Under the pieces are notes generated by a model. The model had not been told where the DNA came from, made no database searches, and saw only the letters and a list, made by a program, of their open reading frames with translations. A stretch of 64,000 bases of DNA from an uncultured bacterium (lineage in GTDB: Bacteria; Patescibacteriota; Minisyncoccia; Phycocordibacterales; GWA1-40-21): contig CAIKXY010000013.1 of NCBI GenBank assembly GCA_903831595.1, forward strand, positions 6,793 through 70,792, given 5' to 3'. The translations under genes were made by a program, and so were the position numbers. Below are positions 2,957 to 64,000 of the stretch, in pieces (within the stretch, counting starts at the first letter, position 1; each line of letters starts with the position of its first letter).

Positions 2957-3721
2957 ATGAAAAAACAACCGACCTCATGGGGAAATGTATCAAATTGGTA
3001 TAATGATTTGCTTAAAAAAGAAAACACTTATCAGAATGAGGTTATTTTACCGAACCTGCTAAGGTTAATAAAGATTAAAAAAACAGATATAGTTTTGGAT
3101 CTTGCTTGTGGACAAGGTTTTTTCTCTCATGAATATGCAAAGTTTGGTGAAAAAATAATAGGGGTAGATGTATCTGAAGAACTTATTAAACTTGCAAAGA
3201 AAGGATCTGTTGCAAACGAAAACTTTTTTGTTTCTCCTGCTGCTAATTTGTTTTTTTTGCAAAGTAAGATAATTGATAAGATTTCAATAGTTTTAGCCCT
3301 TCAGAATATTGATAATTTTGATGCTGTTATAAAAGAATGCTCAAGGGTTTTAAAAGATAACGGTAAATTATTTATTGTTTTAAATCATCCAGCTTTTCGC
3401 ATACCCAAAAAGAGTGATTGGGGCTATGATGCTAAAAATAAAGTCCAATACAGAAGAATTGAGAAATACATGTCAGAAATAAATATAAACATCGATATGA
3501 ACCCAGGGGAAAAAGTGCAAAAATTTAAACAATATACAAAGTCTTTTCATATACCACTACAATCATATTTTAGGGCTTTTAATAATAACAATTTTGTTGT
3601 TAAAAATCTTGAAGAATGGATTTCAAACAAAAAAAGTCAAAATGGCCCAAGACAAAAAATTGAGGATATTGCTAGAAAAGAGATACCAATGTTCATGTGT
3701 TTAGAAGTTATTAAAATATAG
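2957..3721 (+). CDS. Class I SAM-dependent methyltransferase
   Basis: Motif I VLDLACGQGFFS and downstream acidic residues GVDVSEE are typical of the Rossmann-fold MTase family. Confidence 0.6.
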   Translation: MKKQPTSWGNVSNWYNDLLKKENTYQNEVILPNLLRLIKIKKTDIVLDLACGQGFFSHEYAKFGEKIIGVDVSEELIKLAKKGSVANENFFVSPAANLFFLQSKIIDKISIVLALQNIDNFDAVIKECSRVLKDNGKLFIVLNHPAFRIPKKSDWGYDAKNKVQYRRIEKYMSEININIDMNPGEKVQKFKQYTKSFHIPLQSYFRAFNNNNFVVKNLEEWISNKKSQNGPRQKIEDIARKEIPMFMCLEVIKI

Positions 3722-3764
3722 TATAATTTACCCCGTTAAATGGTTTTAATTTTTTTTCAATATA

Positions 3765-4019
3765 ATGTACTATACTTATGTATTAAGGTCGCCCAAAGAT
3801 AAAAAGTTCTATACAGGTTTTACAAAAAATTTTAAAATAAGATTTGAAGAACATACAAAAGGTAAAATTGAATCTACAAAAGAAAGGCGGCCGTTAGAAT
3901 TAATATATTACGAAGCGCGTCATAATCGACAAGATGCAACATATAGGAAAAAGTATTTAAAAAGTTATCATGGAAAGTCATTTATTAGAAAAAGAGTCAA
4001 ATCTTATTTAACAGGGTAA
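3765..4019 (+). CDS. GIY-YIG nuclease domain protein (84 aa)
   Basis: YTYVLRS...KFYTGFTKN...RFEEH matches the GIY-YIG motif arrangement. Confidence 0.5.
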   Translation: MYYTYVLRSPKDKKFYTGFTKNFKIRFEEHTKGKIESTKERRPLELIYYEARHNRQDATYRKKYLKSYHGKSFIRKRVKSYLTG

Positions 4020-7375: not shown

Positions 7376-9133
7376 TTATTTTATAAAAATTTTCCAAAGA
7401 TTGTTTGTTTCAATATACCAATTATTAATATCAAGAAATCTTTCGAATGGTAATGTTACAGTATCTATTGTAAATCCTTGGATTTTTGCTGGTGTTATGT
7501 AAATGAATTCTGGTGAGTATAAAAATACTGCTGGAGTGTCTTTTTGAATTTCGTCAGCAAATAATTTGTATTTTGTTATTCTTGCGGAAGTATCAAGGGT
7601 CGTTCTTGCATCTTCCAGTAGTTTATCAACTTTTGCATTGGTATACATTGCAATATTTAGACCAGGGTCATTTCTTTGAGATGAATGCCAAAAGGCAAAG
7701 AAGTCCATATCTCTACCAATAACTTCACCAAAAAGAAGTGCCTCAAATTTTCTTGGTCTAATAATGTTTTGTTGTAAATCACCAAAATCAAATTGATTTA
7801 CATCAACTTTTGCACCGACTTTTTCCCAAGCGCTTTTTATGAGTTGTGCTGCCTTCACAAGATCATCACTATTTAATGTCGAAATTGTAAATGAAAGTTG
7901 AACTATTTTTGTTTTACTAATTTTTTTAGTCATAATACCAGTACTTGTACTTTTTACCCAGCCAGCTTTTGTTAGGAGTCCAATTGCTCCATCTATATTG
8001 TTGTCGACAATATTATTATTTGAATTGTCTATAAGGCCTGCGGGTATTGGACCATAAAGTGGACTACCATAGCCTGATAAAACGTTATTTACAATTGCAT
8101 ATCTATCCACTGCCATATTTAAAGCTTGCCTAACTTCTTTATACGTTAATGCTTCTGATTGATTTTGATTAAAAAATACCGCGAAAACTCTTGGTAGGGG
8201 AGAAACGTTAATTTTTGCACCACTATCTTTATTTATACTGACAATTTTTTCTGGTGAAATTGAATTTATTGATTCAACTTCACGTTTATTATATGCATCA
8301 ATCAGACTAGCTTCGTCTTTATAAAAATTAATAATAAGTTGTTCCACAAATGGTTTGCTAAAAACATAACCATCAAAAGCATTTAATTCGTAATATGTTG
8401 GAATAAGCAAACTATTTTTTTGCAAGGTTTCCATTTTTGTAATTTTATATGGTCCAGAACCAACGGGGTCAACATTGTATTGGCTTAAAGGAAATTGATC
8501 TGATGTCAAATCATCCCATAGATGTTTTGGTAGTATACCGACAGTAAGATTGCCCAAGAAAGGTGAATATGGTTTTTTAAGAATAAATTTGATAGTTTTA
8601 TCATCAACTTTTTCAACTTTTACATCATAAAATCCCGGTCTCTTTGGACTTTTAATTGTGCTATCCTCAATTTTATTTATTGTAAATTCAACATCATCTG
8701 TTGTAACCTTTGTTCCATCATGAAAATAAATGTCATCACGAAGTGTAAAAGTATAGACTAAACCATCATTTGAAACGTCATAGCTTTTAGCCAAATCATT
8801 AATTATAGAATTGTCTTTCCCAAATTTTAATAACCCAGAGTATACAAGTTCGGTCAAATCATGGTCTACATCTGAAACCGCAAGTACGGGATTAATAAAT
8901 CTTGGGGTACCAATAATACCTTCTTTCAAATATCCGCCATTTGTTGGTACTTTTACAGAGACTAAATTATTAACTTTATTTAATATTACTAGACCTGAGA
9001 CTACTAATATGGTACTTAAGGTATAAAATAACAATTTTTCAGATATACTGAATTTTTTTGTCATATCTGAGAGATTTTCAAAAAATCTAATCTCCCATTT
9101 TTTATTGAGAATTTTTTTAATCTTTTCTTTCAC
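7376..9133 (-). CDS. ABC transporter substrate-binding protein, family 5 (peptide/oligopeptide type)
   Basis: 585 aa, N-terminal TM anchor, large solute-binding fold typical of OppA/DppA-like SBPs. Confidence 0.65.
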   Translation of the reverse strand: MKEKIKKILNKKWEIRFFENLSDMTKKFSISEKLLFYTLSTILVVSGLVILNKVNNLVSVKVPTNGGYLKEGIIGTPRFINPVLAVSDVDHDLTELVYSGLLKFGKDNSIINDLAKSYDVSNDGLVYTFTLRDDIYFHDGTKVTTDDVEFTINKIEDSTIKSPKRPGFYDVKVEKVDDKTIKFILKKPYSPFLGNLTVGILPKHLWDDLTSDQFPLSQYNVDPVGSGPYKITKMETLQKNSLLIPTYYELNAFDGYVFSKPFVEQLIINFYKDEASLIDAYNKREVESINSISPEKIVSINKDSGAKINVSPLPRVFAVFFNQNQSEALTYKEVRQALNMAVDRYAIVNNVLSGYGSPLYGPIPAGLIDNSNNNIVDNNIDGAIGLLTKAGWVKSTSTGIMTKKISKTKIVQLSFTISTLNSDDLVKAAQLIKSAWEKVGAKVDVNQFDFGDLQQNIIRPRKFEALLFGEVIGRDMDFFAFWHSSQRNDPGLNIAMYTNAKVDKLLEDARTTLDTSARITKYKLFADEIQKDTPAVFLYSPEFIYITPAKIQGFTIDTVTLPFERFLDINNWYIETNNLWKIFIK

Positions 9134-18662: not shown

Positions 18663-18812
18663 TACATGGTCAGTATAGTCTTCGTATTTTTTCGGATTAT
18701 TAAATCCTCAAAAATATGCTCAGACTTTTCAAGCCCTCTCACGCAAGCAAAGTAGTTTGCTTGCTCCTTAGCAAATGAAAAACCTCAGCAGAAAGCCGAG
18801 GTTTTTCATTTG

Positions 18813-18893
18813 TGCACGGGAGAGGACTTGAACCTCCATGCCTTGCGGCACTAGCTCCTAAGGCTAGCGTGTCTGCCATTTCACCACCCGTGC
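18813..18893 (-). tRNA. tRNA-Leu (anticodon UAG), class II
   Basis: Reverse-strand read gcacgggtggtgaaatggcagacacgctagcCTTAGGAgctag...ggttcaagtcctctcccgtgca. Acceptor and T-arm are canonical. Confidence 0.8.
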
Positions 18894-18971: not shown

Positions 18972-19294
18972 AAGACCCACATGCGCAACTATAAAAATAA
19001 CAGAAAAATACGGAAAAATCAATTAAAATTAGGGAATCGGTTATATTTTCTACTTGAGTCCCATCCCGAACTCTAACAGCATATTTCTTTTGGTCCCATT
19101 CAAAACAATAAACAGACGGGGAGGGACCGCTTCGCTTATCTCTCCTTACAGGAACTGTACACCTTTCGTATCGTACTCACGACGTTCCGTGCGATAGACT
19201 CAAGGTTTTTCGATTCCCGCACACAAGCAAGTAATCTTGCTTGTTCCCGAGCACAAAATTAAAATACACATTTGAAATGTGTATTTTAATTTTG

Positions 19295-19378
19295 TGCTCG
19301 GGGCGGGAATCGAACCCGCATGGTGTTGCCACCGAGAGATTTTAAGTCTCTAGCGTCTACCAATTTCGCCACCCGAGC
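19295..19378 (-). tRNA. tRNA-Leu (anticodon UAA), class II
   Basis: gctcgggtggcgaaattggtagacgctagagaCTTAAAAtctct...gggttcgattcccgccccgagca. Confidence 0.8.
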
Positions 19379-27931: not shown

Positions 27932-28013
27932 GCGCCGGTCGTATAGTGGCAATTACACGAGACTGTAAATCTTGCGGCTTCGGCCTTCGGGGGTTCGAGT
28001 CCCTCCCGGCGCA
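27932..28013 (+). tRNA. tRNA-Tyr (anticodon GUA), class II
   Basis: gcgccggtcgtatagtggcaattacacgagaCTGTAAAtcttgcggcttcggccttcgggggttcgagtccctcccggcgca. Confidence 0.8.
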
Positions 28014-28051
28014 CAAAAATAAAACGCTTTAATAGCGTTTTTATTTTTGTG
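28013..28051. repeat. 39-nt near-perfect palindrome immediately 3' of tRNA-Tyr (cacaaaaataaaacgct ttaat agcgtttttatttttgtg)
   Basis: Read directly from the sequence. Equivalent long palindromes follow tRNA-Leu(UAA) at 19252-19296 and tRNA-Phe at 32584-32623. Another lies between tRNA-Glu and a tRNA-Glu-like 5' fragment (39606-39634), and a self-complementary stretch occurs at 63941-63956. Confidence 0.7.
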
Positions 28052-28372
28052 CGTCCGGAGTAAGTGCTAGGATGCACTTACGTGAGGGACTCGAAGCCTG
28101 TTTGAGCAGATTTTGTGAGTGAAGCGAAACAAAATCTCCAAACAGGGTACTGACCCTGTAAGGGTCGAATGTCCCTCCTCGTGTTCGTATTTCAAATTTG
28201 GCGTGGGGACCTGAATTTTATGACTTGACCGAGTCCCTCCCGGCATTTCGTTGCGCTCAAAATTTTGTTGGACCCCAAATTTTATGACTCTCATCTCTTG
28301 ATTAATCAAATTTGTCATGCTTTACTTGCATTAGAAGTTAAGTCTAAAAATTCTGATGGACGGAGGTCCAAT

Positions 28373-32403: not shown

Positions 32404-32623
32404 ACAAAAAACCGCGAAAGCGGTTTTTTAATGTGCCAAGGGCCGGAATCTCTCCCTCACCTCTCATTTCGTCGACACTCAATTCGGGCTAGGCACCAGC
32501 TCATTCATTTTTTCTGCTGAAAAAATATCATTCCGCTGTTCTCGTCCGGACAGAAGCAAAGCAGTTTGCTTCTTCCCTTAGCCCAAATTTAAAAACACCA
32601 GATACTGGTGTTTTTTAAATTTG

Positions 32624-32697
32624 TGCCAAGGGCCGGACTCGAACCGGCGACCACATCCTCTTCAGGGACATGCTCTACCAACTGAGCTACCTTGGCT
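32624..32697 (-). tRNA. tRNA-Phe (anticodon GAA)
   Basis: gccaaggtagctcagttggtagagcatgtccCTGAAGAggatg...gccggttcgagtccggcccttggca. Confidence 0.8.
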
Positions 32698-33015: not shown

Positions 33016-33258
33016 AAGTATATTATACTATACGGTTGGTATTTATCAATTATTTGTGGTGCGTCCCTGGCCAGACCATGAGTACATTTATTTCCTTCGA
33101 CTAAAACTTTGCCGTCACTCAGCTTTGTCTAGGCACCTGCTCATTTGTTCCACAAGCTTGTGGAACATCATTCCGCCGTTCGATTCTGGCTCACAAGCAA
33201 AGAAGTTTGCTTGTTCAGCGACACATAATAAAACTGCTAGAAAAGCATTATTATTATG

Positions 33259-33330
33259 TGTCCCTGGCCAGAATCGAACTGACATCTATCCCTTAGGACG
33301 GGATTGTTCTATCCATTGAACTACAAGGAC
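33259..33330 (-). tRNA. tRNA-Arg (anticodon CCU)
   Basis: gtccttgtagttcaatggatagaacaatcccgTCCTAAgggat...gtcagttcgattctggccagggaca. Confidence 0.7.
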
Positions 33331-35112: not shown

Positions 35113-37326
35113 TTATATTGGCCATTTTTCTATCATTAAAATACTTTTATCTTCATTTATTGATTGCCAAATTTCCTCAGTTAAAAAAGGCATGAATGGG
35201 TGAAGAATAGTGAGGATTATTCTAATTGTAGATAATAAAAATTGTTTTCTTGATGTTTTTGATGTTTCATCGGTATTTTCCTCTGCAAAAACTTTTTTAC
35301 TATCCTCAAGTATTATGTCTGCAAATGTATGCCATGCATAATGATATATTTTTTCTCCTGCCATGTAAAATCTAAATTCTTCCATGTCAGATGTTATATC
35401 AGCAACAAAATTATTTCTTTCTTCAATTAATTTTTTATCAGCATCAGAAAATTTATTAAACTTTGAATCAAATTTTGTTTCTTTTACTGACTCTAAAATA
35501 AATCTAGTTATATTCCAAATTTTGTTTGCGAAATTTTTATAGGCCTTAACTTTGTCGTCTGACCACCGAGTATCTGTACCAGGAGTATTACCGATTACGA
35601 GCGCCATTCTCAATGCATCTGTACCAGATTTTTTTGATATATCAACTGGATCAATATTATCTCCCAAAGACTTTGATATTTTTTGGCCTTTTTGGTTGCG
35701 AACCATTCCGTGAAAGTAAACAGTTTTAAATGGAATATCTCCTAAAACATAAGTGGACATAAGTATCATTCTTGCTATCCAAAAGAAAATTAAATCATAG
35801 CCACTCTCAAGCACATCTGTTGGATGGTAAAATGACAAATCTTTGGTCTTTTCTGGCCATCCAAGCGTTGAAAATGTCCATAAACCAGAGGAAAACCATG
35901 TATCTAGTGTATCCTCATCTTGTGTCCATCCGCCACCTTTTGGGGCTTCTATTCCACAATAAACCTCTGTACCTTTGTACCAAACGGGAATACGGTGGCC
36001 ATACCATATTTGTCTTGAAATACACCAGTCTCTTAGAGTATCAATCCAGTGGAAATAAGTTTTTGTAACATAATCAGGGATAACATTTATTTGCCCACCT
36101 TTTACCGCATTTTCCATTAGTTCTTTAAGTGTTGTCTCTTGTCCATTTTTTATACCTTTAATATTCGAGTGTTCAATTTTAAAAGATTTATTTACAGCAA
36201 CAAACCATTGAAGTTTTGGTAATGGTTCAATAATTCCTCCCGTTCTTTCAGCAGTAGAAACATTTTGTTTTATTTCTTCCTCTTTTTCCAGAAGTTTTTC
36301 CGATTTTAACCACTCAACAATTATTTCTCTTGCCTCAACAACTTTTTTACCAAAAATATTTTCACCACCAACCATCATTCTTGCTTTTTCATCTATTACT
36401 TGTACAACAGGTAATTTATTTTTTTCTCCAATTTCCCAGTCAATCATTGAGTGTGCTGGAGTTACACCAAGCGCACCTGTTCCGAATTCTTTATCGACTG
36501 ATTCATCCGCAATAATTTTTATATGAATTTTTACACCACAAAATACGGCATCATATTCTTTACCAATATATTTTTGATAGCGAGCATCATCGGGATGAAC
36601 AGCAACGGCAGTATCACCAACTTTTGTTTCGGGCCTTGTGGTAGAGATTGAAATAGGGAAGTCCTTCGAATACTTAAAGGTATAAAATTTTGCTGGTCTT
36701 TCTTCATAAACTATTTCTTCATCAGAAATTGTTGTTTGACCTTTTGGATCCCAATTCACGATTCTGAAACCTCGATAAATAAGTCCATCATCATACATTT
36801 TTTTAAATACTGTCCTTACTGCAAGATTTCTTTTTTCGTCCATTGTAAACGCTTCACGTGACCAATCTAAAGATGCACCCATTACTTTTGATTGAGAAAT
36901 AATTGTGTCATGGCTTTGTTTTACAAAAATACCTATTCTTTTTAATAGTTCTTCTCGTCCCAAATCGTATCTCGATTTGTCTTCTTTTTTCTTAATATCT
37001 TTTTCTACACGCGATTGTGTTGCTATTGCGGCATGATCTGTACCTGGAACCCAAAGTGTTTTTTTACCACGCATTCTTTGATAGCGAATCATAATATCTT
37101 CTATCGTCAAAGTCAGAGCGTGACCCATATGAAGAATACCCGTCACATTTGGCGGAGGTAACATTATTGAGTATTTTTCTTTGTGTCTTGGTGGGAGGTT
37201 ATCGGGATTAAAATAACCAGAATCTTCCCATAGTTTGTATATTTTAGATTCGGTTTCTTGTGAATTATATGGCTTTAGGAATTTGCTTGCCACGTGTGAA
37301 TTTTCGCTTTGTTCTTCTTTTGACAT
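35113..37326 (-). CDS. valS: Valine--tRNA ligase (compact form)
   Basis: PPPNVTGILHMGHAL (HIGH), KISKSLGN (KMSKS), an editing-domain region, and a C-terminal coiled coil. 737 aa. Confidence 0.85.
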   Translation of the reverse strand: MSKEEQSENSHVASKFLKPYNSQETESKIYKLWEDSGYFNPDNLPPRHKEKYSIMLPPPNVTGILHMGHALTLTIEDIMIRYQRMRGKKTLWVPGTDHAAIATQSRVEKDIKKKEDKSRYDLGREELLKRIGIFVKQSHDTIISQSKVMGASLDWSREAFTMDEKRNLAVRTVFKKMYDDGLIYRGFRIVNWDPKGQTTISDEEIVYEERPAKFYTFKYSKDFPISISTTRPETKVGDTAVAVHPDDARYQKYIGKEYDAVFCGVKIHIKIIADESVDKEFGTGALGVTPAHSMIDWEIGEKNKLPVVQVIDEKARMMVGGENIFGKKVVEAREIIVEWLKSEKLLEKEEEIKQNVSTAERTGGIIEPLPKLQWFVAVNKSFKIEHSNIKGIKNGQETTLKELMENAVKGGQINVIPDYVTKTYFHWIDTLRDWCISRQIWYGHRIPVWYKGTEVYCGIEAPKGGGWTQDEDTLDTWFSSGLWTFSTLGWPEKTKDLSFYHPTDVLESGYDLIFFWIARMILMSTYVLGDIPFKTVYFHGMVRNQKGQKISKSLGDNIDPVDISKKSGTDALRMALVIGNTPGTDTRWSDDKVKAYKNFANKIWNITRFILESVKETKFDSKFNKFSDADKKLIEERNNFVADITSDMEEFRFYMAGEKIYHYAWHTFADIILEDSKKVFAEENTDETSKTSRKQFLLSTIRIILTILHPFMPFLTEEIWQSINEDKSILMIEKWPI

Positions 37327-37429
37327 GATATTAATTTATTGAATACTAGAAAATACTAGCAGTGCTACCACTTATTACAAAATTCTTTACGTGGTTTTGC
37401 ATTGTGGCTTTATAATAGCAAATATATAT

Positions 37430-37466
37430 AAAATTGGGAATAAAATAACCCCTTTGTAAAAAGGGG
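37430..37466 (-). terminator. Intrinsic terminator on the minus strand (cccctttttacaaagggg followed by ttattttatt)
   Basis: Plus-strand hairpin cccctttgtaaaaagggg at 37449-37466. A T-rich run follows only in the minus orientation. Confidence 0.5.
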
Positions 37467-37628
37467 CTTATAAGTCACGAAGTACTTATATATTTTGTGC
37501 GTGGGGGAACCTAGAGACTCCGGTATAGGCTATTTAGAGCCTAAGTCTCCCATAGGGTTTTGGGTCACATAGGTATCCCCCTCGCATAGGAAAGGATATT
37601 AATATAAATCAAAATAAAAATCAAGTGT

Positions 37629-37664
37629 TATTATTAATCATATTAATTATTAATTAATAAAAAA
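37629..37664 (-). terminator. Strong intrinsic terminator on the minus strand (ggcccagcgtatgagcgacgcttgggcc + 8 U)
   Basis: On the plus strand: aaaaaaaa ggcccaagcgtcgctcatacgctgggcc. A GC-rich 9-10 bp stem. Confidence 0.7.
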
Positions 37665-37886
37665 AAGGCCCAAGCGTCGCTCATACGCTGGGCCCCATTG
37701 GAAGACCTATCATTTCAATTTATTTGGTCCCCCTAACTCTAACAACAAGGAGCTAGCGGCATGGTCCCCGAGGCTAAATCTCATTGGATTTTAGCCTACA
37801 TTACCCTCCTCCCTCGAGTTATCTTGGATATGTTATTCCTATTAATAAAAAAGGCAACATCAAACTGTTGATAACTTTTTGGCTTA

Positions 37887-39050
37887 TTATAAGCTTAAAT
37901 TTCCTTTTGCTTTAAATTCAGTTTCTGGTTTTTTACCAGCTTTAATATTTATATACCCAGCAAGTGCAATCATAAAAGCGTTGTCTGTTGATGCACTTAT
38001 TTCCGGTACTAAAAATTTAATATTTAAATCTTCGGCAAGTTTTGTAAAATCATTTCTAATTTTTTTGTTTGCACTGACTCCACCTCCCATGATTATGGTT
38101 TGGGCACCATATTGTTCAACAGCTTCTTTTGTTTTTTTAACAATTACTTCGACAACGGCATCTTCAAATTCTCTGGCAATTTCTTGCTTCATTGTGTCAG
38201 TTAATTTATCAATTTTTTGCACGGTATATAGAACGGCAGTTTTTATTCCTGAAAATGAAAAATTTAAATCATGAGAATGAATCATTGGTCTTGGAAGAGG
38301 GAATGGAGGAATCTTGTTTGGAAACTCAATTCTTTCTTTTTCCGCAAGTTTTGAAATCTGTGGACCACCGGGATATGGAAGTCCAAGTATTCTTGCAACT
38401 TTATCAAACGCTTCACCAATAGCATCGTCTTTTGTATTTCCAACTATTTCGTAATTCAAATTATCTTTAATTAATACAAGCTGAGTGTGTCCACCACTTA
38501 TTAAGAGTGCAATAGCGGGGAATTGAATATCAGTCATCTCGTATTCTTTGTCAGACGTTTTTTTAAGTGGAGCTACCATAATATGTCCTTCCATGTGATT
38601 TGTCGGTATCACTGGAATATCCCAAAGTGCTGAAAGAGCTTTTGCAAAGCTAACACCCACCCAAAGTGCTGGTTCAAGCCCTGGACCGTTTGTGACGGCT
38701 ATGGCGTCTATTTTTGGCTTTTCAATTTTTTTGGCTAATTCTATTAATGGTTCAAATAAACCTTCTTCTCTAATCAAAATTTGTTTTAATTTAGTATTTT
38801 TTTCTTTTGAGACATTTGTTTTTTTATTTTGTTTTAAAACATTTGCTTCTTCCAGACACTTTTCCAAAAGGGGAGTTAGATTTTTTCCATGTTCTCTTTT
38901 TGCCATCATTGGAAATACACCACCATATTGTGCATGGAGTGCGACTTGAGAATATAGTTGATTGCCTAGTATTTTAACCGAATTATCTTTTGCTTCAATA
39001 AGGCAAATCGCAGTTTCGTCACAGGATGTTTCAATACCTAAAATAATCAT
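37887..39050 (-). CDS. tsaD: tRNA N6-adenosine threonylcarbamoyltransferase TsaD (Kae1/YgjD family)
   Basis: MIILGIETSCDETAICLI, metal-binding HMEGH, GGGVSAN. It has an insertion of about 45 aa relative to typical TsaD. Confidence 0.85.
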   Translation of the reverse strand: MIILGIETSCDETAICLIEAKDNSVKILGNQLYSQVALHAQYGGVFPMMAKREHGKNLTPLLEKCLEEANVLKQNKKTNVSKEKNTKLKQILIREEGLFEPLIELAKKIEKPKIDAIAVTNGPGLEPALWVGVSFAKALSALWDIPVIPTNHMEGHIMVAPLKKTSDKEYEMTDIQFPAIALLISGGHTQLVLIKDNLNYEIVGNTKDDAIGEAFDKVARILGLPYPGGPQISKLAEKERIEFPNKIPPFPLPRPMIHSHDLNFSFSGIKTAVLYTVQKIDKLTDTMKQEIAREFEDAVVEVIVKKTKEAVEQYGAQTIIMGGGVSANKKIRNDFTKLAEDLNIKFLVPEISASTDNAFMIALAGYINIKAGKKPETEFKAKGNLSL

Positions 39051-40480: not shown

Positions 40481-40553
40481 GGGCGGTTAGCTCAGTTGGT
40501 AGAGCATTTCTTTGACGTAGAAAGGGTCAGAGGTTCGAATCCTCTACCGCCCA
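40481..40553 (+). tRNA. tRNA-Val (anticodon GAC)
   Basis: gggcggttagctcagttggtagagcatttctTTGACGTagaaa gggtc agaggttcgaatcctctaccgccca. Confidence 0.8.
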
Positions 40554-40839
40554 CAAAAATTCCCGAATAGGGAATTTTTGGGACGGTAAGAAAGCTCTGG
40601 GAGAGCTTTCGTGGGGATTCGAAAACCTTTGATAGTTTTTTGCAAGCTAACGCGAAGTAAAAAACAGAAAAGGTGTACAGAAACTGTAAGTTTCGAAATT
40701 CCTCTACATCACAAACAAAAAACTAGTGACCGAGTACTGCACCGTCCACAAAATAAAAAACCGCCATTTGGCGGTTTTTTATTTTTTCAAAAATTTAAAA
40801 ATATATTTTTAGACTTTAATAGTATCACCAATAACTATG

Positions 40840-63781: not shown

Positions 63782-64000
63782 TATTAAAAACCGCCGAGGG
63801 GGCGGTTTTTTAGTGCGGGAGATGGGGATCGGTCACAAGTATTTTTCTGCTGAAAAATCTTGCGACCATTACATGGTCAGTACACCATTTTGGATATTTT
63901 ATTTTGCTGCACTCATAAAATATCTCAAAAGGTCTTTCGGTTGGGTCCCAACCCAATCCTCAACCCGACTCAGCTCGTCAGCTTCCGTCTTCCGATTCCT

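Follow-up and report, generated by a model that had tools for sequence, protein, structure and literature searches.

The window analysed here, a 64-kb stretch of DNA with a GC content of 33%, carries on its minus strand the gene tsaD (39050..37887; PF00814), a spacer of 560 nt and a class-I aminoacyl-tRNA synthetase gene (37326..35113) that encodes 737 aa and whose homologues carry the name valine-tRNA ligase (valS below). The nearest public relatives of this ValS come from metagenome-assembled genomes labelled Paceibacterota, Nomurabacteria or 'uncultured bacterium', and the window genome is of the CPR/Patescibacteria, Paceibacteria/Nomurabacteria type; a cluster look-up for relatives closer than those used returned singletons. 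Read along the minus strand, the spacer holds a candidate small RNA (B), then a GC-rich hairpin (element A) with a promoter-like site ahead of it and a terminator behind it, and finally a promoter-like site of valS. The positions of these features, together with those of other structured regions of the window, are collected in Table 1.

Table 1. Features of the tsaD-valS spacer and the most stable folds elsewhere in the window
Feature	Position	Strand	Basis or remark
Candidate sRNA B	37659..37857	-	Conserved in L001, L164, L173 and L086
Promoter-like site of B, TTGCCT-N16-TAACAT	37857..37830	-	
Structured core of B, 76 nt	37818..37743	-	
Terminator of B, GGCCCAGCG..CGCUUGGGCC + U8	37694..37659	-	10-bp GC-rich stem
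Promoter-like site of the candidate sRNA, TTGATT-N17-TAATAT	37596..37624	-	Sequence reading; position kept in L001 and L164
-35 hexamer of this site, TTGATT	37624..37619	-	
-10 hexamer of this site, TAATAT	37601..37596	-	17-nt spacer between the hexamers
Element A, imperfect GC-rich hairpin, 89 nt	37498..37586	-	Fold; identical in L162 and L163
Short AU-rich hairpin, UAUAAGU-ACUUCGUG-ACUUAUA	37470..37490	-	MFE structure; between element A and the terminator
Intrinsic terminator of the candidate sRNA, AGCCCCUUU-UUAC-AAAGGGGUU then AUUUUAUU	37437..37468	-	Terminator scan
Promoter-like site of valS, TTCCCA-N17-(TG)cTATTAT	37412..37440	-	Promoter scan; outside the sRNA, 3′ of the terminator
tRNA-adjoining structures	18700-18840, 19180-19320, 33150-33290	-	Most stable folds of the window
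tRNA-adjoining structures	27985-28260, 40520-40790	+	Most stable folds of the window
tRNA-adjoining structure	32430-32650		Most stable folds of the window

Among 160 related loci, tsaD lies immediately 5′ of valS in 124. The two genes abut or overlap (gap below 60 nt) in 44 of these 124 syntenic loci, about one third, which looks like the ancestral arrangement; the gap measures 150-700 nt in 46 and exceeds 700 nt in 25, with extremes in Paceibacteria of -15 nt and ~3 kb (L001-L160). What lies between the genes is mostly unrelated from lineage to lineage and, because gap sizes vary and contents are unrelated, the junction can be regarded as a hot spot of insertion and turnover. Structured GC-rich stretches with terminators were seen in several junctions (L002, L005, L087, L092, L095, L098, L102). 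The rule that the spacer of every relative consists of promoter-hairpin-terminator units was rejected, since strict terminator counting found a perfect-stem sense terminator in just 12 of the 46 spacers of 150-700 nt. The junction of L002 (9481-10001) holds three tandem hairpin-plus-terminator units, and that of L003 (7771-10001) two ORFs, a GC-rich RNA-like stretch and a small winged-helix-like ORF. At 9150-9400 of L003, three consecutive units, each running from CACGTC through a variable hairpin to GACGCAAACTAAATAGA and ATTTCC, form a short hairpin array with conserved flanks and variable interiors. A GC-rich unit at 8960-8985 of the same locus and another in the tsaD-valS spacer of L093 share AGTAGTGGCG(A/T)(G/A)(C/A)CGAAAG; this motif resembles CAGUAGCGGCGAGCGAA, a conserved segment of 23S rRNA, and the two units could be rRNA-derived fragments.

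Element A had been noticed in a reading of the sequence alone as a strikingly GC-rich patch that folds into a long irregular hairpin, and both parts of this description were borne out. GC content is 0.47-0.48 across 37490-37579 compared with 0.13-0.25 in the flanks, and the predicted fold beats chance, with a minimum free energy of -38.2 kcal/mol (z = -4.05) that none of 200 dinucleotide shuffles equalled. The outer stem, put at about 14 bp in the sequence-only reading, is GCGTGGGGGAACCTAG / CATAGGTATCCCCCTCGC and comprises 15 bp interrupted by a single mismatch and a single bulge; GAGACT/AGTCTC as inner helix and TAGGCT-ATTTAG-AGCCTA as apical hairpin were recovered as described. On the minus strand, the basal helix UGCG/CGCA is followed by an A.A mismatch and then by GGGGGA/UCCCCC and ACCUA/UAGGU, the interior can form either CCC/GGG or GAGACU/AGUCUC, and the apex is UAGGCU-CUAAAU-AGCCUA. 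The entire 157-nt unit of the window folds at -54.9 kcal/mol (z = -4.3). Shuffle-based z-scores for the hairpin were -4.05 in the window, -4.9 in L001 and -3.0 in L164, and those for the whole unit were -4.3 and -7.3. The opposite strand of element A folds equally well (-39.5 kcal/mol, z = -3.9), and structure therefore gives no strand assignment; the minus strand was assigned because both terminators in the spacer have U-tails on that strand only.

The hairpin is 100% identical in two independent assemblies of the same species, L162 (GCA_903954215.1) and L163 (an ENA assembly), and is thus not an assembly artefact. Pattern search, blastn-short and nhmmer detected one copy in the 64-kb window, and no further copy of the window, L001 or L164 hairpin was present elsewhere in ~1.8 Mb of related loci; a dispersed repeat was thereby rejected. 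A small peptide was also considered and rejected, as the 17-codon ATG frame of the window lacks a start codon in both L001 and L164. A sliding-window scan over the full 64 kb, corrected for GC, ranks the element A locus just ~13th, several tRNA-linked structures being far more extreme.

These most stable structures of the window (-58 to -75 kcal/mol per ~125 nt) lie just 3′ of tRNA genes and share a common order: past the 3′ half of the tRNA, a bidirectional terminator is followed by an inverted copy of the acceptor 3′ strand, then by a hairpin (e.g. ACAAGCAAGATTACTTGCTTGT) and finally by an inverted copy of the T-arm. With tRNA-Tyr and tRNA-Val there is in addition a direct partial copy, the third, 190-240 nt downstream. 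Over all the DNA examined, an exact inverted copy of at least 10 nt of the tRNA 3′ end was found within 160 nt for 31 of 351 tRNAs, and shuffled sequences gave none longer than 8 nt. The tRNA-adjoining structures have no Rfam match. A small palindromic motif, TTTTTCTGCTGAAAAA, occurs at ~32509-32525 and at ~63842-63857, each time inside a separate GC-rich structured intergenic region, one of which adjoins tRNA-Phe while the other follows a terminator at ~63790-63812.

Searches against known families placed the element A unit in no described RNA family. An Rfam 15 search of 37300-37950, enclosing the interval 37400-37700 singled out in the sequence-only reading, gave no match at the gathering threshold, and at E<=10 there were chance-level matches only, the best scoring <=22.6 bits against thresholds of 39-100. 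No family matched the L001 and L164 counterparts at E<=10 or the tsaD-valS spacers of 17 relatives at the gathering threshold; none of the structured spacers examined (window, L001, L164 and 17 relatives) matches an Rfam family, and over the whole window and 17 related loci Rfam returned only tRNAs, RNase P and chance-level matches. ARAGORN placed 12 tRNAs in the window and no tRNA or tmRNA in 37300-37900. The sequence-only reading had also reported that the T-box signature and the motifs of SRP RNA domain IV are missing, and this agrees with our results: a AGGGUGGNACCGCG-like pattern had no match with up to 3 mismatches in 37300-37700, the Rfam T-box model (RF00230) gave none even at E<=10, and there was no GNRA tetraloop, no AGCA or GGUCAGG loop and no SRP covariance model match at any threshold. 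Element A had no match in phage collections, plasmid collections or IMG/VR. When trans-targets were sought by RNAduplex against 70 start regions, long gapped duplexes were obtained and no outlier.

The AT-rich stretch that had been called promoter-like (37593-37628) does contain a candidate promoter, TTGATT-N17-TAATAT, with the base of the hairpin 10 nt beyond the -10 hexamer; transcription of the candidate sRNA is predicted to start near 37589, a few nucleotides ahead of the hairpin base. The site is unlisted by the promoter scan because it agrees with the consensus at 8 of 12 positions, one under the threshold. Equivalent sites are TTGCTT-N17-TAATAT in L001 and TTGATT-N16-TATTAT in L164, and in all three lineages having element A the promoter-like hexamers lie 8-10 nt before the hairpin base. 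The hexamers agree only weakly with the consensus (8/12 in the window and 7/12 in L001), the DNA is so AT-rich that matches of this kind are frequent in it, and the promoter scan of the region reported 3 sites against 3.6 expected by chance.

On the other side of the hairpin, an A-rich linker leads to the short AU-rich hairpin, whose stem ATAAGT/ACTTAT is conserved in L001 and L164 and whose loop varies. A minus-strand terminator had been placed about 30 nt past the hairpin, and the scan recovered it there: AGCCCCTTTTTACAAAGGGGTT + ATTTTATT at 37468..37437 begins 30 nt after element A. It is conserved in L001 and L164 with G-U-compatible changes, and its counterpart is degenerate in L173, a lineage without element A. 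The unit accordingly has an intrinsic terminator of its own on the same strand, and element A is bracketed at its 5′ side by the strong minus-strand terminator of B and its own promoter-like site and at its 3′ side by its own terminator.

Candidate sRNA B sits directly 3′ of tsaD, and its terminator insulates element A from tsaD transcription. In addition to the structured core it has a second hairpin, GGGGGACC..GGUCUUCC. RNAalifold on a MAFFT alignment of B including the promoter gave a poor consensus, and hence covariation was assessed on a trimmed alignment of the window, L001, L164, L173 and L086 with a hand-derived structure. Here, 94% of the cells in the core are paired, and in 6 of 19 pairs both partners change across the five lineages; values this high were obtained in only 2-5 of 500 shuffles, and in slid controls 30-56% of cells pair. 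A covariance model of B matches these lineages only (~1.8 Mb searched), B is confined to the clade with ValS identity of at least 82%, and Rfam has no family that matches it. Of the two candidate sRNAs, B has the stronger support.

The two units are linked through the DNA ahead of them. In L164, the 70-nt stretch 5′ of the hairpin is clearly paralogous to that 5′ of B (score 51 versus 22.5 +/- 3.7 for shuffles, z = 7.6, 0/500), and among the parts it contains are the CAACA..TTG hairpin on the tsaD side and the -10 region GGAATA-TATA; this paralogy is eroded in the window and L001 (z ~1.5). In L087 the same promoter module is freshly duplicated ahead of two different RNAs, and the doubled module in that junction (3379-3992) drives both. 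The paralogy in L164 and the duplication in L087 support two conclusions, that the stretch 5′ of element A is a promoter module and that a local duplication gave rise to the unit. For the RNA bodies of A and B, paralogy is not supported: the pairwise comparison gave z = 3.4 in the window, but profile HMMs of the two domains of B score the A variants no higher than shuffles.

Positional counterparts of element A occur only in the two closest lineages, an 86-nt hairpin (GUACGGGGUG...CACCCCGUAC) in L001/L081 (ValS identity to the window 94-95%) and an 87-nt hairpin in L164-L167 (94%). In L086 (89%) the hairpin is absent while the 3′ half of the AU hairpin and the terminator are kept, consistent with a deletion; L168 (84%) has a 5-bp stub, GGGGGUCGCGCGGCCCCCACACACAAAG; and L173 (82%) has merely a promoter-like remnant and a decayed terminator. 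Since L173 and L086 lack it and L168 has no more than a stub, element A is dispensable. Between the three lineages that have it, neutral positions are heavily diverged, four-fold degenerate sites of valS being identical at 0.58 between the window and L001, 0.63 between the window and L164 and 0.54 between L001 and L164. Against this background, promoter-like site, AU hairpin, terminator and valS promoter, which together make up the frame of the unit, are ~85-90% identical across the three.

The hairpin bodies have fared differently. Those of L001 and L164 are strongly alike (nhmmer E = 5e-9; local alignment z = 25.8); 2 of 32 predicted pairs differ, both of which still pair via G-U, and substitutions are concentrated in the loops and apex. 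Because these hairpins are far more conserved than neutral sites, they appear to be under purifying selection in the two lineages. The window hairpin shows no significant sequence similarity to that of L001 or L164 (z ~0); its nhmmer E-value of 0.003 comes from an alignment that extends into the conserved 3′ flank, and the window is no farther from L164 than L001 is. A match by eye is possible for the basal helix alone (UGCG-A-GGGGG versus GUAC-GGGGG, with one exchange of G-C to A-U), and homology of the hairpin bodies rests on position, like length (89, 86 and 87 nt) and this one compensatory basal pair; with just three lineages, there is essentially no covariation statistic for element A. 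As the bodies are dissimilar and the frame is conserved, we conclude that the hairpin body was remodelled or replaced in the window lineage with the frame kept.

We favour the reading, at a probability of roughly 0.45, that element A is the body of a young, clade-restricted, dispensable and independently transcribed sRNA; its status as an sRNA, its transcription, its start site and any activity in trans are matters that we infer. According to this model, element A would be the 5′ stem-loop body of a stand-alone non-coding minus-strand transcript of ~145-150 nt. Transcription would begin at the sigma-70-type promoter TTGATT-N17-TAATAT a few nucleotides ahead of the hairpin base, pass through the 89-nt hairpin, the A-rich linker and the short AU hairpin, and stop at the terminator 37468..37437. 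The element A unit would thereby be the second of two tandem small-RNA units between tsaD and valS, its promoter module born by duplication of the module of the upstream unit B, and it would be evolutionarily young, present in a narrow clade only and deleted or truncated in sister lineages. If functional, it would most likely act in trans, either by base pairing via its C/A-rich internal or apical loops or as a protein-binding hairpin, with no cis action on valS.

The main rival, which we consider less probable and on balance doubtful, is that element A is a functionless GC-rich quasi-palindrome, produced and remodelled by mutational events that make or perfect inverted repeats (e.g. template switching or local duplication) in a fast-evolving spacer. 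Incidental transcription would be possible without any role of its own, and the conserved parts of the region would be terminators and promoters serving tsaD, B and valS. A DNA palindrome would fold equally well on both strands, as element A does, and the rival would sit comfortably with a hairpin body that is wholly different between genomes with 94% identical ValS and that close relatives have lost or truncated. The junction is moreover a general dumping ground (44, 46 and 25 of 124 loci by gap class), and the genome forms other, far larger palindromes beside its tRNA genes. What a functionless palindrome does not account for is that conservation between the hairpins of L001 and L164 far exceeds that of four-fold sites, the stems being nearly invariant, and that a promoter-like module is held at a fixed distance from the hairpin in three lineages.

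Element A could alternatively be a 3′ extension of the tsaD/B transcript or a transcriptional insulator that adds to the tandem terminators or stabilisers parting tsaD from valS. This is unlikely. There are indeed two tandem terminators ahead of the valS promoter, and tsaD and valS overlap ancestrally and were probably co-transcribed; however, the terminator of B, 5′ of element A, should already stop most transcription, an irregular 89-nt hairpin with no U-tail is no terminator, and the duplicated promoter module would be left unexplained.

The sequence-only reading had offered two possibilities, an independent sRNA or an unfamiliar leader of valS. The first is favoured by the anatomy of the unit, with its own promoter-like site and terminator, and by the comparative data. 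The second is not supported: valS has its own conserved promoter-like site 3′ of the terminator, and because of this element A is not taken to be the valS leader. The sequence of that site, TTYCCAA...TTTGCTATTAT, is conserved whether or not a lineage carries element A, and the site is kept in the hairpin-less relatives L173, L086, L168, L002, L118 and L092, and tsaD and valS abut at about one third of the loci. A cis-acting leader or attenuator, in which a signal at the hairpin, T-box-like or protein-binding, would set termination or read-through at 37468..37437, is thus given a very low probability. Its appeal lies in the attenuator-like layout (a promoter, a long irregular hairpin about as large as Stem I, then a small hairpin, a terminator and an aaRS gene) and in the G-run and C-run of the hairpin, which, as read from the sequences of the window, L001 and L164, could pair with the C4 and G4 arms of the terminator; a hairpin of -38 kcal/mol is, however, far too stable for such alternative pairing to compete. 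Besides the missing T-box sequence and the lack of a T-box match in Rfam at E<=10, no valine codon is consistently found at a specifier-like position over the three variants: by inspection, GUC/GUU triplets in the 3′ arm of the hairpin are paired in the window and do not occur at equivalent positions in L001 or L164.

The feature of this clade that does look like a valS leader lies downstream and is independent of element A. In L001 and L164 the valS ATG is ~10 nt past the -10 of the valS promoter-like site; the same ATG instead opens a conserved short uORF, M[QN]DHVKNF..., in the window and in 10 or more further lineages. The ancestral valS start codon in the window is 37402..37400, ~3 nt beyond the predicted valS transcription start. 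From there the uORF (37291-37402 region, minus strand) reads MQNHVKNFVISGSTASIF and ends at a stop codon, its first 8 codons being conserved in at least 11 lineages. After the uORF comes an insert of ~95 nt with inverted ends, CCACGTAAAGAATTTTG ... CGAAAATTCACACGTGG, which supplies the present valS ATG (37326) and an N-terminal extension, and which L001 and L164 do not have. The segment of uORF and insert may be a MITE-like insertion, a translational leader or both. Element A and the uORF are distributed independently, the window having both, L001 and L164 only element A, and L173 and L168 only the uORF. The real leader feature of valS in this clade is taken to be the uORF/insert at 37402..37291, and control of valS is more likely to be exerted via this downstream conserved segment.

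Least probable of all is a role at the DNA level, in which element A would be what is left of, or the one copy of, a small mobile or recombination element, be it an attachment site, a recombination site or a palindrome of the MITE or REP type. In favour of this, the two arms might function as terminal inverted repeats, the valS 5′ end 100 nt away carries a MITE-like insertion (~95 nt, inverted ends), and the junction is an insertion hot spot that in some relatives contains islands with ORFs. Against it, element A has one copy in 64 kb and none further in ~1.8 Mb of related loci, no match in phage or plasmid collections or IMG/VR, no adjoining transposase, integrase or reverse transcriptase gene and no evident target-site duplication.

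A bolder scenario can be drawn, to which we attach little probability: the tsaD-valS junction would be a birthplace of small RNA genes, in which a promoter-terminator cassette duplicates and its hairpin cargo is swapped wholesale between genomes whose ValS is still ~94% identical, the variable hairpin being an RNA that determines specificity (e.g. a guide, a decoy or an immunity determinant for some partner). If true, such swapping would explain at one stroke the conserved frame, the exchanged body and the conservation of the body within sub-lineages.

To our knowledge, almost nothing is known of regulatory RNAs in CPR/Patescibacteria. A lone, clade-restricted candidate hairpin is of modest interest by itself; if transcribed, however, the element A unit and B would be among the earliest candidate sRNAs reported from Paceibacteria, and the pair illustrates at close evolutionary range how duplication of a promoter module can give rise to an sRNA unit that is later lost. 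For valS biology the outcome is negative, in that the hairpin is no aminoacyl-tRNA synthetase leader.

Several known systems invite comparison with element A. TIGR-Tas arrays consist of tandem ~36-nt dual-spacer units beside a Nop-domain Tas gene (PMC12045711), whereas element A is a single hairpin with no tandem units and its neighbours are tsaD and valS. Retron ncRNAs differ in a similar respect, for the gene 3′ of element A is valS and that 5′ of it is tsaD, with no adjoining reverse transcriptase. With the small SRP (4.5S) RNA of bacteria (RF00169) it shares the form of a hairpin-shaped RNA of ~100 nt, but it is not universal in relatives, as an essential RNA would be. GC-rich palindromic repeats of AT-rich genomes, such as the Rickettsia palindromic elements, REP/BIME and the GC clusters of yeast mitochondria, offer a closer parallel: element A too is an imperfect palindrome of ~90 nt in an AT-rich spacer, both its strands fold equally, and it shows presence/absence polymorphism and fast turnover. 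Such repeat families are, however, defined by many dispersed copies, and element A has one copy in 64 kb and none in other related DNA.

The T-box leader (RF00230) is similar in its setting, since element A lies 5′ of an aaRS gene on the same strand and presents an irregular hairpin of Stem-I size followed by a terminator. Unlike a T-box, it has no T-box sequence, antiterminator bulge, conserved specifier codon or covariance model match; a separate valS promoter lies past the terminator, and the element is absent in close relatives. The nearest likeness is to stand-alone bacterial sRNAs, which have their own promoter and an intrinsic terminator and of which the Hfq-independent RsaE of AT-rich Firmicutes, with its C-rich loops, is an example. 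The element A unit differs from known sRNAs in bearing no sequence or covariance-model relation to any Rfam family and in having no seed conserved across its three variants. It resembles them in its size (~150 nt), in its GC-rich stem-loops within an AT-rich spacer, in a promoter-like site near the 5′ stem, in a Rho-independent terminator and in its position between operons, and, like sRNAs of the RsaE type, it presents C/A-rich unpaired stretches, CCCAAAACCC in the window and AACCAAAU in L001 and L164.
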